Shown piece by piece: positions 474 to 32,386 of a stretch of DNA of 64,000 nucleotides. Numbering within the stretch: the first letter of the stretch is position 1; each line of letters opens with the position of its first letter. This DNA comes from Promethearchaeota archaeon (GTDB lineage: Archaea > Asgardarchaeota > Lokiarchaeia > Sigyniarchaeales > SOKP01). Under the pieces are notes generated by a model that saw nothing but the letters and a program-made list of their open reading frames with translations, was not told the origin of the DNA and ran no database searches. The stretch is from positions 139 to 64,138 of the forward strand of contig JBHLON010000010.1 of NCBI GenBank assembly GCA_048940445.1, written 5' to 3'. Made by a program: the position numbers and the translations under genes.

Positions 474-1727
474 TTATACTATCCGAACCAGAGTTGTATG
501 GCAAAATTCACATCTAATCGCCCCCTTCTTTGAATCTTTTTGAGTTAAAGACTCTTTGAGTTGAATACCGCAATATGGACAATTTAATTCATGAATTTTG
601 GCTCTTAATTTTTCAAACAGCCATAGTGGAATCTCATTTTTGAAGAACCAATTTGGTAAGTTGCTTAAAAAGTTGGAATTCTCGAACACAATGTCTAGTT
701 CTTCATCATTAAGGTAATTCAAATATCCTTGATTGATTAGATATAAAACAACAGAAGGATAGCCACTTTCTAAACGTAAGGCAATTTCTTCTTTGAATAC
801 TTTATTAGCAAGGGGATCTCCAGCCTTTACAAGAGCCTTTAATAACGGAAAAGCTAAATTTCTGTGTAACAAATTTGAAGAGTAATTGTTTTCATACCAC
901 GCCTGAATGTTAGAGCAATGTGCCCAAAATTCAACTTCGGGAGAGATACTAAATTTAGAAGCCCCTTGTTGTTCCATTGAGGTATCTAAGATTTCTGCAG
1001 CTTCATCTATTGACTCAATCTTATCATAGTCTCTGATTTTATCAAGTTGAAGATTTAGCAGTAGATATTTGCATTGTCGAAATAGAGAGCCTCCCACATA
1101 TATATTTGTTTTTTCATTTTCCAATCTAAGCTTTAAGTAATTATTAATTATGAATTCTTTTCTTATATATACAAAGGGGTTCTGCTCCCCATTGCAATAC
1201 TGAAATATCATGTTTACCAAAGTTTGAAAAGCTTGGTTAACATTTTGTTCATTTTCAAGAGGAATTTCTGCGAATGCTGAAAGGTGATAGCTTTCTGCCA
1301 ATGATCTTCCTTGTTCCCATGATACTTCTCTTGTTTTATCTTTTGAATTAACTGATGAACCTAAGAGCATGATTGGGATGTCTCTGGTTCTTTGTCTTAT
1401 TAATCTGATATGATCTGCTAAGCAATCTAAAGATCCCGAATTCATGATATCATATAAAAATATAGCACCTAAAGCTCCACAAGAATACATTGGTATAAGA
1501 GATCTGAAGCGTTCTTGTCCTCCTACTAACCAAATCTGTAATTTGATCATCTTACCAGATGATTCTACCGATTTAACATGAAATTCTACACCAATTGTCA
1601 TTTCATAGTCTTCTTTAAAGACGTTATGACAATAATTTGCTTCCAGAAATTGTTTGCCAACAACCTCATCACCCATGATCATTATTTTATAAAGATAATC
1701 ATACATTGGCATTTTATGAATTTCCAA
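474..1727 (-). CDS. Rab-like small GTPase-fold protein with degenerate nucleotide-binding motifs, C-terminal helical domain and zinc ribbon
   Basis: 417 aa. The first ~170 aa align by eye to the paralog at 8323-9117 (YDYLYKIMIMGD, MTIGVEFHVK, KLQIW..GGQERF, GALGAIFLYD). G1 is GDEVVGKQ (no Ser/Thr) and G3 is WLVGGQE (Asp lost). NKxD is replaced by GSSVNSKD and SAK by AEIP. The C-terminus ends in CPYCG-x17-CEFC. Confidence 0.75.
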   Translation of the reverse strand: MEIHKMPMYDYLYKIMIMGDEVVGKQFLEANYCHNVFKEDYEMTIGVEFHVKSVESSGKMIKLQIWLVGGQERFRSLIPMYSCGALGAIFLYDIMNSGSLDCLADHIRLIRQRTRDIPIMLLGSSVNSKDKTREVSWEQGRSLAESYHLSAFAEIPLENEQNVNQAFQTLVNMIFQYCNGEQNPFVYIRKEFIINNYLKLRLENEKTNIYVGGSLFRQCKYLLLNLQLDKIRDYDKIESIDEAAEILDTSMEQQGASKFSISPEVEFWAHCSNIQAWYENNYSSNLLHRNLAFPLLKALVKAGDPLANKVFKEEIALRLESGYPSVVLYLINQGYLNYLNDEELDIVFENSNFLSNLPNWFFKNEIPLWLFEKLRAKIHELNCPYCGIQLKESLTQKDSKKGAIRCEFCHTTLVRIV

Positions 1728-1780: not shown

Positions 1781-4700
1781 TTATGAGTGTTCTGATAAGG
1801 GCAGAACAATTGATTTCTCAATAAGGGATTCAAGGGCTTTAATTACCAGATCTTTTTTCTTCTCATGAACCTGTTCGATTGCATCCTTTAAATAAAAGTC
1901 AGGCTTAACGTTGGTCATGGATATGATCACATTGAGAAGTCTTAGTTCCATTTTATTTAACTCTCCTTCTTGCTTTATTCGATTAATGTTTTTCATTGTA
2001 GTTAATTTAAAATATTCTTTATAATAGAGCTGTAAATGTTCATCTAAAAGCTGTGGCAATTTTTTATTAAATTCATCTAAGTCTCCATTAAAGGCTTCAA
2101 ATTTTTCTGAAAAGATTGAACTTATCGATAGTAGAAGTTCTGAGGTTTGAGCTTTTAGTCTTTCAGAAGCTTGTTTTTTTAGAATAAAAACAATTCTAAT
2201 ATCCTTATTTTCACATATGAATACATTAAAAAATCTAAAATCGAGACTCATCATTCTATCAATTCCACTTAGATTTTTTGGAGTCTCAATGGAATAGTCT
2301 TTAATGTGCTCATCCCCTACAATTCTTTCACCTAACATAGTAATTGCTTGAATAAAACCACCGAGCAAATCATCTTGAAATCTTTGTTCTGAGAAATAAC
2401 TTTTTGAATAAATCCCCAAACCGCTTCCTTCCATTGATAGCGTAATTGCTTCAATATTCATGACATCTCTATATTTTTGGGTTTTTGCGAGAAGCTCAGA
2501 TTCCTTTTTCCTTTTTCGAGGTAAAATAACATAACTTCTCAAGCCAATTATTCCAAATATCCCTATAATTCCAATTAATCCGAATACAACAAACCAAAGT
2601 GGAACATTAGATTGGGGTAATACTTCTTGTGTGATGACTATAACAAAGGAATATTCTTTAACCTCGTATAATGAATTTTCCTTCGAAATGGTTAAATTCA
2701 TTCGATAACTTCCTTGAATATTGACTGGAAGCCTCAATTCTAATTCATAAGTTCCAGAACCGAAGTAGTCAAAATAACCGTTACCAAATCTCCACGAGTA
2801 GAAAACTGTTGCATTTTCAATATAAATATGGGAATTGCTTTCAGTTAAGTTAACTTTAATTGTAATTACTTCTCCAACGAAAGCTTCAAGTGAGTCTTTA
2901 AAACCCATCGTATTTACAGTTATGGGTATATTATTAATGTTGACAATGATAGTTTTATAAATAGTAGTGTATCCTGCTTTTTGCAACTTAATTGTCGCTG
3001 CATAGGTCTTAACAGAAAGAGACGTTGTGTTTAAGCGCACTACAAATCCATATGAGTCGGTTATGACTTTATATGCGGCATCCCAGCTAACAGTACAATT
3101 TGCTCCAAGGATTAAGGTTCCTGAGCTTTCGACTGTGTAATTCACTCTAATATCATAAACTTCATTAAGATCCGCAAATATTGAAGTTCTATTTACATTG
3201 CCTTCCGCTTGGATTGGAAATATAGTCATAGCTATAAAACCTGTAGTCGCTTGATAGTTACTCTTATTAGCAAAAATTGTAATAGTATATGTCTCTATAA
3301 TTCCTTGTTTTGGCAAATCCCAAGTAGAGAAATTTAAGGAATACGTACCATTGTTATAATCTGTAATGAAATATGGGTTTTGCCAATTAGTACTTATATT
3401 TGCTTGCGAAATTAAGGTACCAGTAGAGGCTCCAGTTACATTTATCTGACAACTAATATAGTCATTTCCTAAACCACTAATCACTTTCTTTGGAGTCTCT
3501 AAAGCTAATGGTTGAGCTAAAATTTTTAGTTGAACTAAATTGATTGAGGTTTGATTCTCATAATAGCTTTTTGAGGCATTAAATGAAAAATAATAATTTC
3601 CAAGATCGAGAGAGTCTGTATTAATCTCACTGATATAAACGCCAGGTTGATAAGTCATCATTCCAAATGAATCGAATGTAGAACTATAGGTAATAGTCCC
3701 ATAAGCAATTGATGCATTTAGATCAGAATCGATAAATTTTACCTTTAGCAAAAAAGATTCTCCAGCAATCCGTTCTAAATAAGTATCTATTGCAATTAAA
3801 CTCGTTTTATGGATAACATTAAATTTCAACAATTTAATTCCAACTTGAGAGGCGTTTTGGTCGTGATCAGTCCATATAATCTGGGCAGAATATTTTCCAC
3901 ATGTTATATTTTCTACTCCAATAGTTATTTTCGAAAATTCGAATATTCCATCAGCGTCAACTAAAATCTTATCTTCTTGATACATCAAGGTTCCATTTGA
4001 ATAATAAATTTTTAAACTCGCGTTTGTTTCATCTAAATTTGGAATAGATGCTGTATTGATTGTTCCATTTACTTTCAAATCATCTAAGGCGTAGAAAGTA
4101 TTGTTCTGTGCCCAATAACTTCCCGTTCTCCTGTATATATTAGCTTCTTCAACATAATTTGGAGCATCCACTACTACCTTCCAAATTCCATTAGTTACAA
4201 TAGTATTAGGAATCTTTAAAGTTGAATTCCCATATCCAGCTGTCGCTAATACATCATTTATTTTATTAGCACCGTAAGGATTAATTAATTGAGTAACATT
4301 CCAATTAGTTGGTTTTGTTACATTCAAATAATAATCAGTAGAGTATGTACCGGGTATTATGATGGTAAAATACATAGTCCAAGTGGCTTTTGTGTTCGTA
4401 TCGACTTGAAATTCTGATCCTGTAAAACCTAATTGAGTTTTTGTTTGCTTTTGAGATGTGGCCTTTACAAAGAATTCAGTATTTAAGACTATTCTACCTG
4501 AAGAGTTAGAGCTGAAACCAAATAGGTGATATCTTCCATCAATATCACCTTCCCACATATTTTTAAGAGTGATGGTGCCTTCACCTGGACCGATATCGTT
4601 TATATTAGTCCAATCATCATTGGTGATATCATTGATATTGAGATTAATATCGGAAGGTTTTGGAAGGGTCGATAATGAAAGTGTAATATTATCATAAAAT

Positions 4701-5587
4701 AACTGTAAAAATCCAGATGGATTAATTCCAGAGTTTCCGAAATTCACTCCAAATTTTAAGGAAATTTTGCCTGGGAGAGCCATACCATATTGTTCTGGAG
4801 TGAACAATGGTATAGAATCTTGATGGATTTCATTATCGGCAATATTTGATAATTTCTCAGAAAAGGATTGTGAAATTCCATTAACATATAAAGAGAAAAA
4901 AACTTTAGCCCCCCCAAGCCCAGTCATCCAATTAATATCACTGTAAGATGCCCAATACTTAAAATTAATATCCCAATATTGATATGGAATTTGATATCTT
5001 GGTAAATTAAATGTATAATTTACATAAGAATTAAAATTGTTCCATGGTGTTCCTGGTTCATTAGCATCTTCAAATCTAATGTATATTGAGTCATTGTCTC
5101 CTTCTGGATTGTTATACCAACCAAAAGTGACATTCTGTGGGCGCTTAGTATAATTGCTCCAATGTGATAAATCTATACCTGTATTAAAGGTTTCATTTAC
5201 CCAAAGTGAATCATAATCATAAATGTTTGAAATATTACATATTACCTCATTAGCTTTCCAGTCTTCAGGAACAATTATAGATGCATTGTCATTATTGTTT
5301 AAATCTAATCCATTATTTGGAAAATCAGCAAAACCATATTCAGTTATATTTTGGGCTTTACCTATCCCAGAATATTGACTTATGGATATATCATTTAGTT
5401 TTAACTCTAAATCCATAGAAGGTGTATCTATTTGATTAAAATTGAAATCTTTCTTATAATTTTCCTCTGATTTCCATACAATTTGATTAGAGAGTAATAA
5501 AATTGATAAGTTTAAGGCAAGTAAAAAGATTACATTTATCCATTTCCTTGTTTTAAATTTCACTTTTTTCACAAGAATTAAGTACAA
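1781..5587 (-). CDS. large single-pass surface (glyco)protein with tandem beta-sandwich-type repeats and a cytoplasmic longin/roadblock-like tail
   Basis: 1268 aa. N-terminal signal anchor (WINVIFLLALNLSILLL). The ~950-aa N/T/Y-rich ectodomain has about 35 N-x-S/T sequons (hand count) and at least four ~98-aa repeats. One TM helix (LWFVVFGLIGIIGIFGIIGL) is followed by RKRKK and a 246-aa tail. The TTG start is uncertain by a few codons. Confidence 0.75.
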   Translation of the reverse strand: MYLILVKKVKFKTRKWINVIFLLALNLSILLLSNQIVWKSEENYKKDFNFNQIDTPSMDLELKLNDISISQYSGIGKAQNITEYGFADFPNNGLDLNNNDNASIIVPEDWKANEVICNISNIYDYDSLWVNETFNTGIDLSHWSNYTKRPQNVTFGWYNNPEGDNDSIYIRFEDANEPGTPWNNFNSYVNYTFNLPRYQIPYQYWDINFKYWASYSDINWMTGLGGAKVFFSLYVNGISQSFSEKLSNIADNEIHQDSIPLFTPEQYGMALPGKISLKFGVNFGNSGINPSGFLQLFYDNITLSLSTLPKPSDINLNINDITNDDWTNINDIGPGEGTITLKNMWEGDIDGRYHLFGFSSNSSGRIVLNTEFFVKATSQKQTKTQLGFTGSEFQVDTNTKATWTMYFTIIIPGTYSTDYYLNVTKPTNWNVTQLINPYGANKINDVLATAGYGNSTLKIPNTIVTNGIWKVVVDAPNYVEEANIYRRTGSYWAQNNTFYALDDLKVNGTINTASIPNLDETNASLKIYYSNGTLMYQEDKILVDADGIFEFSKITIGVENITCGKYSAQIIWTDHDQNASQVGIKLLKFNVIHKTSLIAIDTYLERIAGESFLLKVKFIDSDLNASIAYGTITYSSTFDSFGMMTYQPGVYISEINTDSLDLGNYYFSFNASKSYYENQTSINLVQLKILAQPLALETPKKVISGLGNDYISCQINVTGASTGTLISQANISTNWQNPYFITDYNNGTYSLNFSTWDLPKQGIIETYTITIFANKSNYQATTGFIAMTIFPIQAEGNVNRTSIFADLNEVYDIRVNYTVESSGTLILGANCTVSWDAAYKVITDSYGFVVRLNTTSLSVKTYAATIKLQKAGYTTIYKTIIVNINNIPITVNTMGFKDSLEAFVGEVITIKVNLTESNSHIYIENATVFYSWRFGNGYFDYFGSGTYELELRLPVNIQGSYRMNLTISKENSLYEVKEYSFVIVITQEVLPQSNVPLWFVVFGLIGIIGIFGIIGLRSYVILPRKRKKESELLAKTQKYRDVMNIEAITLSMEGSGLGIYSKSYFSEQRFQDDLLGGFIQAITMLGERIVGDEHIKDYSIETPKNLSGIDRMMSLDFRFFNVFICENKDIRIVFILKKQASERLKAQTSELLLSISSIFSEKFEAFNGDLDEFNKKLPQLLDEHLQLYYKEYFKLTTMKNINRIKQEGELNKMELRLLNVIISMTNVKPDFYLKDAIEQVHEKKKDLVIKALESLIEKSIVLPLSEHS

Positions 5588-7471: not shown

Positions 7472-8344
7472 TTATTCTCTTTCAAAGGAATTTTGAATAT
7501 TACAAATTGAAAAGCCTAATTTCTTATATGTGTGAACAGCAGCATCATTCTCTACTCTTACCGTGATTAAGCACTCCTCTTTTTCTTTAAAAACAGCTTT
7601 CAATACAGAAGAGACTAATGAACTAGCTAATCCTCTATTTCTATAATCTGAATGTGTTCCAACGACCGTTATATATCCCACTTTTTGATACATCCATAAG
7701 CTAGTAATACATACCAACTTCTCTTTCTCAATAATGCCAAACCAAATATTATTTTCATCCATTAAGTTATCATCTAAACTATGATTACCCCAAAATATAG
7801 GATCTGCATTTCTCATGAACAAGACAATCTCTTCTTTATTGCTTTCCTTTAAAGTTTCATATGGATATTTTTCGTAATCCTTTTGTTCTCCTTTTTTCAT
7901 ATCCATACGGTACATTACAATTTCTTTTTTATAATTAGGAAAGAATTTTGCTATAATCGGCTTATGATGTTCAAAACCGGTTATTGAAATTGGGTTGTAA
8001 TTCTCCTCATTCAATAAAAATTCCAAACTTTCATTCGATCCTCTCAATTGAAGCCTGCGATCTTTCCACATTAGGGTCATTCCTTGAATCTTATCATTAA
8101 CATCTAATGCTAAGAAAATTTCAGTATCTTTAGGGTATTGAACATAATCAGCATGGAAGAAAAAATATTCCGCAAAGTTATCTTTAATGAAATCATAAAA
8201 TAATGGTTCATTAACTGGAGTTAGATGAACTGATCGTAATCTTTCATGTATCATATTTCCTCTTAAGAAATGAGATGCTAAAAGAATTTCGGATTTCTTA
8301 TTTATCAAAAATAAGCTAAATTCTATGCTGCCCTTTTTCTGCAA
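7472..8344 (-). CDS. GNAT family N-acetyltransferase
   Basis: 290 aa. The C-terminal acetyl-CoA motif A is VVGTHSDYRNRGLASSLVSSVL, followed by VENDAAVHTYKKLGF. The annotated ATG overlaps the upstream GTPase stop by 22 nt. An alternative Met lies 30 codons downstream. Confidence 0.8.
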   Translation of the reverse strand: MQKKGSIEFSLFLINKKSEILLASHFLRGNMIHERLRSVHLTPVNEPLFYDFIKDNFAEYFFFHADYVQYPKDTEIFLALDVNDKIQGMTLMWKDRRLQLRGSNESLEFLLNEENYNPISITGFEHHKPIIAKFFPNYKKEIVMYRMDMKKGEQKDYEKYPYETLKESNKEEIVLFMRNADPIFWGNHSLDDNLMDENNIWFGIIEKEKLVCITSLWMYQKVGYITVVGTHSDYRNRGLASSLVSSVLKAVFKEKEECLITVRVENDAAVHTYKKLGFSICNIQNSFERE

Positions 8345-9117
8345 TTATGCGTAAATCTTTCCGAGATCGTGAGTTCCTTACCGCAATATGGACAATAGTT
8401 TTTACTCTCTGGTTTATTTACATGTGTTTGTCTTTCAAGTTCTGAGCTCGGAGGCCTAAAGATAGAAGATAAAGAGTTTCTTTCATTAAGTGGCAGTCTG
8501 GGTTTAGATTCAATTGTAGATGGTTCTTTTAAAGTGATCCTTCCAGGACTAAATACAGTTTCATTAGCTATTAATTTGTCGGGTACGCCCTCCCCAATCA
8601 TAAGACAAGTCATGATATAAAAGCAATCTCCTACTCCATCGCCAGTTTTAGCCGAAGTTTCCATATAATAAAGGTTAGCATTCCTAGTAAAACGATTAAT
8701 TTCACTAATAGATACAGTTCTTTCGTCTGATAAATCACTTTTATTGCCTACGAGTAATAGAGGGATATTAGCGGCAGTGTTAGCCCGTATTTCTTGGATC
8801 CATCGAGGAAGATGCTCAAAACTAGCATAGTTAGTAAGATCAAAAACTAAAACAGCTCCTAGAGCTCCTCGATAATATATAGGCCTGATTGTACTAAATC
8901 TTTCTTGGCCTCCTGTATCCCATAGTTGCAGTTTGCATCTAATTACACCTTCATATGTGTCTATAGGAATTGTCTTAACATGAAAATCTACGCCAATTGT
9001 CATCTTATAGTCTTCAGTAAATAGGCCAGTTGAAAATCTTACGGTTAATGCTGTCTTACCGACTCCACCATCCCCTATAGCAATTGTCTTAAAAAGATAA
9101 TCATAATTGTCTGCCAT
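8323..9117 (-). CDS. Rab-like small GTPase with C-terminal zinc knuckle
   Basis: 264 aa. G1 GDGGVGKT, switch I TIGVDF, G3 KLQLWDTGGQERF, YYRGALGA, LVFDLT, G4 GNKSD, G5 TSAK. An ~80-aa S/P-rich linker leads to CPYCG-x11-HNC at the C-terminus. There is no CAAX or CC motif. Confidence 0.9.
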   Translation of the reverse strand: MADNYDYLFKTIAIGDGGVGKTALTVRFSTGLFTEDYKMTIGVDFHVKTIPIDTYEGVIRCKLQLWDTGGQERFSTIRPIYYRGALGAVLVFDLTNYASFEHLPRWIQEIRANTAANIPLLLVGNKSDLSDERTVSISEINRFTRNANLYYMETSAKTGDGVGDCFYIMTCLMIGEGVPDKLIANETVFSPGRITLKEPSTIESKPRLPLNERNSLSSIFRPPSSELERQTHVNKPESKNYCPYCGKELTISERFTHNCRKRAA

Positions 9118-31753: not shown

Positions 31754-32386
31754 ATGAGATTCAAAAAGAGAAAGAAACTTAAAAATAGATTAAAGGAAGA
31801 AGAACCTCATTTTGAAATACAACCTTTAATCGAGCATAAAGATAAAGAAAAGCATCGTTTTGAGCCTCACTTTTCATTCAAAGTCTTATTAGTAGGGCAT
31901 AATGATTCAGGAAAGATAAGTTATCTAGAAGACTTTGGAAATTCATGGTTTAAGGCTAATACAAAGTTATCAATTGGAATTAGTTTTGAAATAAAAGAGA
32001 TCAAAATAGAAGACGTTAATATAAAGTTGCAAATCTGGGACTTAGCTATAGAAGAACGTTGGAGAGATTTAGTTCCACTTTACTGTAGAGGTGCATTGGG
32101 AGCTATTTTAATGTTTGAAATGTCAAAACCAGAAACATTGTATAAATTACCAAAGTGGATTCGGATCATAAAGGATAATACTGCAAATATTCCTTTGATC
32201 TTAATGGGGAATATTGATCTCCCAAATAACCTAAATCAAGTTTCTAAAGAGCAAGCTTTAGATTTTGTTAGATCTGAACAATTAAATGGGTATTTCGAAT
32301 GTAATGTTCTTACGGGCAAGAATTTAAATAATGCATTTGAAAGTTTAACGAGACTAATAATTAAAAATTATGAAAACAAGACATAA
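31754..32386 (+). CDS. Rab-like GTPase-fold protein with lost catalytic motifs (pseudo-GTPase) and basic N-terminal extension
   Basis: 210 aa. G1 GHNDSGKI, G3 WDLAIEE, G4 GNIDL, G5 region NVLTGK. It retains the family core KLQIWD..RGALGAILMFE. The 40-aa N-terminal extension is K/R/E-rich with EPHF twice. Confidence 0.7.
   Translation: MRFKKRKKLKNRLKEEEPHFEIQPLIEHKDKEKHRFEPHFSFKVLLVGHNDSGKISYLEDFGNSWFKANTKLSIGISFEIKEIKIEDVNIKLQIWDLAIEERWRDLVPLYCRGALGAILMFEMSKPETLYKLPKWIRIIKDNTANIPLILMGNIDLPNNLNQVSKEQALDFVRSEQLNGYFECNVLTGKNLNNAFESLTRLIIKNYENKT

Follow-up and report, generated by a model that had tools for sequence, protein, structure and literature searches.

The stretch of DNA analysed here, which we call the window, comprises 64,000 nucleotides (nt) of contig JBHLON010000010.1 from a Promethearchaeota archaeon of the class Lokiarchaeia (assembly GCA_048940445.1). 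Its G+C content is ~30%, and the proteins most similar to those it encodes belong to Asgard metagenome-assembled genomes labelled Promethearchaeota, Lokiarchaeia, Hodarchaeota, Thorarchaeota and Hermodarchaeota. Close to its start, on the reverse strand, lies a gene whose product joins a Rab-like G domain to a conserved, unnamed module and a zinc ribbon with four cysteines (C4), and on the same strand upstream of it lies a gene for a receptor-like protein. Comparison of the fusion protein with its homologues leads us to propose, as the probable explanation, that it represents an Asgard-specific family whose Rab-like G domain has turned into a pseudo-GTPase and, placed before the module and the ribbon, acts as a fixed binding module and not as a switch. 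Asgard archaea possess dozens of Ras-superfamily GTPases, which are cited in the debate on the origin of eukaryotic membrane and cytoskeleton regulation. To our knowledge almost nothing is known of the binding partners of these GTPases, and the pseudo-GTPases that we know of are mainly eukaryotic.

The fusion gene and its Rab-like G domain

The reading frame at 474..1727 on the reverse strand is uninterrupted over 417 codons and open up to a TTG at 1727, from which the residues of the 417-amino acid (aa) translation are counted throughout. The likely start is the ATG at 1712 (MPMYDYLYK), which gives a protein of 412 aa and agrees with the N-termini of homologues (M-x-x-YDY). The features of the gene are collected in Table 1.

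The N-terminal part is recognisably a Ras-superfamily domain, with matches to Pfam Ras (PF00071, residues 14-174, E 2.1e-34) and Pfam Roc (E 1.9e-19). For the G domain, Foldseek retrieved Rab11a, Rab8a and Rab1 (E ~1e-15, 34-38% identity, with a TM(target) of 0.83-0.87 for Rab11a/Rab8a), and a profile of the protein's family matched Rab11B and Rab43 in the PDB at E 1e-44. An earlier note, made from the letters of the window, had likened this part to the canonical paralogue at 8323-9117, and BLASTP bears out the likeness (44% identity across residues 9-136, E 4e-31). The RabF motifs, as defined in PMC4915359, are present in the window's copy as TIGVEF, KLQIW, ERFRSL, MYSCGA and LYDI. The hydrophobic triad F49/W66/Y81 is kept as well; every family member has F49 and W66, and at least 90% have Y81.

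Table 1. Positions of the fusion gene, its domains and motifs, and its upstream neighbour in the window
Feature	Position	Strand	Remarks
Fusion-protein coding sequence	474..1712	-	Start ATG 1712; stop at 474-476
Rab-like G domain, residues 9-178	1194..1703	-	Pfam Ras, Foldseek, family profile
G1/P-loop, GDEVVGKQ	1650..1673	-	Gln26 where the Mg-binding Ser/Thr is expected; no match to GxxxxGK[ST]
Switch I/RabF1, DYEMTIGVEF	1581..1610	-	Kept throughout the family
G3, WLVGGQE	1512..1532	-	Leu67 where the DxxG Asp is expected; catalytic-position Gln kept; no match to DxxG
G4 equivalent, GSSVN (S124-S125-V126-N127)	1347..1361	-	Aligned to G-[NS]-K-x-D; Lys and Asp gone
G5 equivalent, EIPLE	1254..1268	-	Aligned to E-T/L-S-A/S-K; P-L-E in place of SAK
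Conserved unnamed module, residues 191-360 (~170 aa)	648..1157	-	Beta-meander, helices with EFW(A/G)HCSN, HEAT-like helical unit
C-terminal helix and C4 zinc ribbon	477..647	-	CPYC-x19-CEFC at 501-581
Receptor-like neighbour, 1268 aa, single-pass	1781..5587	-	Upstream of the fusion gene, same strand

The nucleotide-binding motifs of the window's copy are eroded

The P-loop and G3 sequences are exactly those that the earlier note had quoted. It was also right that NKxD and SAK are lost, and only its register needed amending: the quoted NSKD lies three residues out of register, the equivalent segment being GSSVN, and the counterpart of ETSAK is E-I-P-L-E. Both registers were set by alignment with 45 paralogues from the same genome and 120 stand-alone relatives (see below). 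Altogether the window's copy retains 4 of 11 canonical residues, with 7 of 11 gone, and the family mode is 5-6. Since nearly all of the ~47 Ras-superfamily G domains that this genome encodes keep GK[ST], DxxG, KxD and S[AS]K, erosion on this scale exceeds chance expectation.

The eroded sequence recurs in Logan contigs from other samples and other studies, which span the G-domain part of the gene. Contigs of run X3, from a mangrove metagenome of a separate study, match 1273-1800 and 996-1296 with 0 differences, and run X2 matches 882-1800 with a single, synonymous difference (1230 A>G); none of the runs listed for this stretch is of RNA. Because the same residues are found in contigs of independent metagenomes, and because the erosion spans the whole family, the motif changes are neither assembly or sequencing errors nor recent decay. 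The AlphaFold2 (AF2) model superposes best on nucleotide-free Rab11 bound to a guanine nucleotide exchange factor, the root-mean-square deviation being 2.0-2.1 Å as against about 3.8-3.9 Å for most nucleotide-bound Rab8/Rab1 entries; the fit to nucleotide-free Rab11 is a weak hint of a pseudo-GTPase.

The pocket is relaxed throughout the fused family

A search of 5.8 billion proteins returned >2,000 matches, and the architecture was read from the best 120, almost all of which are 380-527 aa long and consist of a G domain, then the ~170-aa module and last a zinc ribbon of the C4 type. The 116 members having both G domain and module form the family set used here. They are annotated publicly as 'Rab family GTPase' or 'GTP-binding protein', which probably overstates their activity. 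Among the matches listed, the fused form occurs in at least 16 of 81 sampled genomes of the class (E≤1e-75), all of them in two genera of one family.

At 13 nucleotide-contact positions the mean entropy of the fused family is 1.61 bits, compared with 1.57 bits in the remaining G domain; thus, the pocket is no better conserved than the background. The corresponding values are 0.52 and 2.32 bits for the 45 paralogues of the genome, and the 120 stand-alone relatives show 0.04 bits at the contact positions and 0.39 over the whole domain. GK[ST], DxxG and KxD are kept together by none of the 116 members, and GK[ST] with DxxG by 18. The replacements are varied (Table 2). At position 71 the family has Glu in 92/116 and the Gln of the window's copy in 3/116, and the Leu that replaces D67 in the window's copy is found in that copy alone (1/116). 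On these figures, selection has ceased family-wide to maintain the residues that contact phosphate, Mg2+ and guanine, and the relaxation of constraint is old.

Table 2. Residues at six nucleotide-contact positions in the window's copy and among the 116 family members
Position	Window's copy	Family members	Stand-alone group
Gly before the P-loop Lys	G24	G69, E15, D11, A8	
P-loop Ser/Thr	Q26	T57, A22, Q13, S12	T 120/120
G3 Asp	L67	D80, E24	
G4 Asn	S124	S57, T24, F21, N9	
G4 Asp	N127	H54, D27, Y15, N10	
G5 Lys	E158	K48, E33, Q19	

The suggestion of a probable pseudo-GTPase with an added domain is therefore supported at the level of the family, in which the contact positions vary no less than the remaining G domain across 116 homologues; in the stand-alone group they are invariant. 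The earlier note had expected orthologues either to share the substitutions, as a sign of selection, or to be canonical, as a sign of lineage-specific decay. The substitutions are not conserved; the orthologues are not canonical either, so that lineage-specific decay is not indicated.

The switch and interswitch sequences of the family tell a different story from its pocket. T44 is present in 113/116 members and G46 and F49 in 116/116, and the positions conserved in at least 90% comprise T44, I45, G46 and F49 (switch I/RabF1), K62 and W66 (interswitch/RabF2) and R73, F74, L77 and Y81 (switch II/RabF3-4), along with G19 and K25.

The fused G domain is closest to a stand-alone GTPase

In a G-domain tree (a quick search with midpoint root) the fused family groups with the Q-to-E clade of the genome, in which Glu stands at the catalytic Gln (SH-aLRT 84-93). 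Among the fused proteins falls a stand-alone GTPase of 184 aa that the same genome encodes outside the window (C107:4996-5550; L006:1495-2049, + strand). Its orthologue group, the stand-alone relatives referred to above, comprises 120 protein clusters of 80-97% identity with invariant GDASVGKT, TIGVDF, WDFGGEE, GSKxD and LSSK motifs. This group is of note in its own right, as an Asgard GTPase that is very conserved and yet has a non-canonical residue, Glu, at the catalytic Gln position, along with Ser for the NKxD Asn.

The C107 GTPase aligns with 77% identity and no gaps to the G domain of the second fused paralogue of the genome (C99, 515 aa), and the differences from C107 to C99 include G to N and T to A in the P-loop, D to H in G4 and K to E in G5. 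By sequence, the fused G domain is closest to the stand-alone C107-type GTPase, from which it probably derives. The tree is compatible with the stand-alone form being either sister to the fused family or nested inside it, and a slow-evolving stand-alone form could be drawn toward the least diverged fused branch. Two departures from the canonical motifs, Ser for the NKxD Asn and Glu for the catalytic Gln, are invariant in the stand-alone, parent-like group, and we therefore count both as ancestral features of a functional-looking GTPase and not as erosion. What has eroded, on this comparison, are the GK[ST], KxD and SxK residues, which the fused forms have lost. In the window's copy the ancestral-type Ser is present, but the catalytic position has Gln, not Glu.

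The window's copy is among the more eroded members of the family. Its terminal branch in the G-domain tree measures 0.54, compared with 0.087 for its sister P0004, and it shares 57% identity with this nearest homologue in the G domain as against 84% in the module. The G domain of the window's copy thus changes at a higher rate than the G domain of P0004, with the module being held.

The added module and the zinc ribbon

Conservation within the protein is highest in the module, whose entropy across the 116 members is 1.03 bits versus 1.59 for the G domain. This domain of ~165 aa carries, in the window's copy, the family motifs L-x-L-E-x-x-x-T-N-I-Y, Q-C-K-Y-L-L-L-N, S-I-D-E-A-A, E-F-W-x-H-C-S-N-x-Q-A-W and L-H-R-N-L-x-F-P-L-L, the residues of which are conserved in three alignments. 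Within it, C219, H270, C271 and H288 vary little or not at all, whatever the architecture, and could constitute a putative metal site or catalytic pair. The ribbon cysteines C383, C386, C406 and C409 are each conserved in at least 90% of 75 homologues.

The full-length AF2 model has a predicted local distance difference test score (pLDDT) of 78.8 and a predicted template-modelling score (pTM) of 0.53, and the C-terminal 237 aa modelled separately reach 77.3 and 0.70, respectively. In these models short beta strands at ~186-219 precede a poorly predicted helical stretch, confident HEAT-like helices at 263-361, a further helix and the zinc ribbon. The earlier note had correctly recognised an appended CPYC...CEFC ribbon; its description of the extension as helical holds only in part, as a beta-meander and helical repeats come before the helix and the ribbon.

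The module is abundant beyond the fused family. A phmmer search with residues 181-417 against 1.84 billion representatives gave 2553 matches at E≤1e-3, of which 1388 reach E≤1e-30, and the module usually begins at residue 2 of the matched proteins. Among 96 sampled module proteins, leucine-rich repeats (LRRs) occur in 29, tetratricopeptide repeats (TPRs) in 10 and Ras domains in 8. The genome itself has five module genes, of which one encodes a transmembrane (TM) segment, the module and LRRs, and another a TM segment, the module and a zinc ribbon. The long forms of the fused family (500-527 aa; C99 in the genome, L002:1504-3051) have the ~90-aa helical unit of the module (LAFPLLKAL..GDPLAK..SGYPS..) duplicated in tandem.

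No described family accounts for this part of the protein. A Pfam scan of the C-terminal 237 aa gave no match, NCBIfam holds no family for the module, and the ESM Atlas gave no usable match for the same 237 aa. When the family alignment was searched as a profile against the PDB, the best 60 rows were all Rab G domains and the module was left without a match. PDB fold searches with the C-terminal model stayed at noise level (Foldseek best E 1.3; VIA-align wide best Z 3.1), the weak rows being generic alpha-solenoids (CNOT9, importin, HOPS); such a null result is proof neither of a new fold nor of missing relatives.

Gene neighbourhood

The gap between the receptor-like gene and the fusion gene is 53-68 nt long and contains an AT-rich, TATA-like stretch, so the fusion gene may have its own promoter. 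The earlier note had suggested that the fusion protein may be a scaffold or locked switch for this upstream receptor, a proposal that conservation does not back: no receptor homologue was found near family members in 7 genome loci and 35 metagenome loci (0 of 42 in total), and the same loci revealed no other conserved gene neighbour of the family.

The cytoplasmic tail of the receptor-like protein (1781-2650, reverse strand) belongs to a family of 10 paralogues in the genome, with copies for example at C47:5405-6217, C19:13152-13991 and C96:13670-14293, which share a D-x-x-N-I...L-I-S-G-F-L-Q-A-I block after the TM helix. The last of these adjoins a small GTPase of the Q-to-E clade (C96:14461-14985). 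Roadblock/LC7 genes lie directly beside fused members in about four metagenome loci (L026:203-670, L029:1698-2516, L044:1476-1868 and L054:1732-2517); the arrangement, exemplified by the L026 gene (Pfam E 2.5e-10), is recurrent, not general. The receptor tail has no detectable similarity to these Roadblock neighbours (BLASTP E 0.64, hhalign probability 0.2%) and no match in Pfam or in the PDB profile search. In a further locus, a 527-aa family member is adjoined by a gene (L023:1081-1500, reverse strand) for a 139-aa protein with a gelsolin repeat and a C-terminal zinc ribbon, a zinc tail of the same kind as ends the Rab-like proteins of the window.

A fixed binding module or a switch

The reading that we favour is that the G domain of this family is a pseudo-GTPase of a class i-like kind. 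Class i is the class that neither binds nor hydrolyses nucleotide; a G fold with degenerate motifs, one of its marks, is what the window's copy presents (4 of 11 residues, and family-wide contact entropy equal to background), and the family keeps the G fold and, in switch I, the interswitch and switch II, sequences of the Rab type. The G domain would then no longer bind or hydrolyse GTP in a regulated way and would instead offer a fixed protein-binding surface imitating the parent GTPase, with which it may engage the partners of the parent or dock onto its own module. The function mainly preserved by selection, for example scaffolding or localisation, would reside in the module and the zinc ribbon. 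By Rosetta-stone logic, the fusion itself suggests an interaction of the module with the stand-alone GTPase, a suggestion to which gene neighbourhoods add no extra support. A more specific version, which we regard as distinctly unlikely, is that the module is the effector or docking domain of the WDFGGEE-type stand-alone GTPase and that this GTPase is imitated, independently of nucleotide, by the pseudo-G domain built into the fusion. The mimic would either hold the module permanently 'engaged' or auto-inhibit it until displaced by the GTP-bound GTPase. In that case an archaeal Rab-like GTPase would for the first time have an identified effector family, made up of the ~2,500 clusters that bear the module, many of them with LRR or TPR scaffolds.

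Several points weigh against the pseudo-GTPase reading. The loss of nucleotide binding is read from sequence alone; the inter-domain arrangement is uncertain in the full-length AF2 model, which lends no support to docking in cis; and small-GTPase genes are not enriched beside module-only genes (3 observed vs 3.07 expected in 237.6 kb). The phosphate side of the pocket stays conserved, with G19 in 112/116 members, the P-loop Lys K25 in 106/116 and the switch I Thr T44 nearly invariant, and most members also have D67 (80/116) and G70 (77/116), so that binding of phosphate or a nucleotide may persist in some of them. Replacement of the G4 Asp is not random, as His (54/116) or Tyr (15/116) recurs there in 69 of the 116, which could reflect a changed ligand and not an absent one. 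The conserved phosphate side and the recurrent G4 residues favour the main rival, namely a nucleotide-dependent switch of altered chemistry (ATP, xanthosine triphosphate or another ligand, or Mg2+-free) that binds via the P-loop Lys and the switch I Thr and cycles with the help of partners, and it, too, can point to the 18 members with intact GK[ST] and DxxG. However, a new specificity would require a fixed replacement pattern and none is seen: 47/116 members have Glu, Asp, Ala, Pro or another residue where Gly should precede the P-loop Lys, the P-loop Ser/Thr is likewise replaced in 47/116, and the window's copy lacks both Mg ligands (Q26, L67) and any G4 or G5 contact. We consider such a switch possible, though unlikely.

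Two other explanations turn on the locus of the window itself. That the fusion protein serves the upstream receptor-like protein exclusively, as its locked switch or scaffold, the two genes forming a signalling unit, is suggested by their shared strand and short gap, by the tail paralogue that adjoins a Q-to-E clade GTPase and by the few loci in which Roadblock-domain genes flank family members. We nevertheless find it improbable, given the absence of the receptor homologue from every family locus inspected, a tail that resembles neither the Roadblock neighbours nor any Pfam family, and the possible separate promoter in the gap. Lineage-specific decay, whether of a dying paralogue or as an assembly or sequencing artefact without function, would fit the faster divergence of the window's G domain and its unique changes such as D67L. 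It is barely credible beside an intact frame of 417 codons, a module 84% identical to that of the nearest homologue, four ribbon cysteines all in place, identical sequence in independent metagenomes and erosion that is family-wide.

Relation to known systems

The fused family shares with the Asgard Rab-like small GTPases (PMC4915359, PMC10933270) the G fold, the RabF-type motifs IGV[DE]F, KLQIW, RFR, Y..GA and YDI and the absence of a C-terminal prenylation cysteine, and its closest relative is a stand-alone member of that group. Those described so far are single-domain proteins or longin/Roadblock fusions with the nucleotide motifs kept (PMC4915359, PMC10933270), whereas the fused family has lost the constraint on its motifs and adds an unnamed module and a zinc ribbon; a form like it goes unmentioned in these two papers. 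In eukaryotic class i pseudoGTPases, such as the N-terminal domain of AAGAB (PMC12490416) and the pG domains of p190RhoGAP (PMC5593906), a G fold with degenerate motifs likewise sits within a larger protein and is used for protein-protein contacts. The lineages are unrelated and, for the Asgard family, lost binding is deduced from its residues only; moreover, AAGAB uses a non-switch interface (PMC12490416), whereas the fused family keeps the switch-region sequences of its parent almost unchanged.

The order of domains, a Ras/Roc-like G domain with a conserved non-catalytic domain directly behind it, is that of the Roc-COR unit of ROCO proteins (LRRK2 and Chlorobium tepidum Roco; PMC6337361), and elsewhere the module is joined to LRRs. 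Unlike these, the window's protein has no LRR or kinase, and ROCO G domains bind GTP (PMC6337361). COR was not found in the C-terminal 237 aa, neither by the Pfam scan at E≤5 nor among the Foldseek and VIA rows, all of them weak, and a relationship at the level of the fold may still exist. The literature that we searched, a part of the whole, contains no paper on an Asgard pseudoGTPase or on the EFWGHCSN module.

New in the present analysis are the stand-alone, parent-like group with invariant motifs, the measured relaxation of the pocket, the confirmation from independent metagenomes and the finding that the receptor neighbour is not conserved. The family amounts to a natural experiment, in which the offshoot of a conserved GTPase keeps the switch face, abandons conservation of the pocket and is permanently joined to an abundant, undescribed domain. 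Through the fusion, that domain becomes a candidate partner for an archaeal Rab-like GTPase, and the family, if the pseudo-GTPase reading is correct, would place pseudo-GTPases in the closest archaeal relatives of eukaryotes.

Other Ras-like proteins with altered motifs

Altered motifs were also observed in other Ras-like proteins of the genome. A small-GTPase paralogue at 31754-32386 on the forward strand of the window (C98:31892-32524) has degraded motifs of its own (GHNDSGKI, WDLAIEE, GN-IDL and ECNVLT) and branches at the base of the Q-to-E clade. A multidomain Ras-like protein of 433 aa (C117:304-1605, reverse strand) departs from the canonical motifs in its P-loop (GETGVGKK) and has extra residues inserted in G3 (WNFTGANIE).

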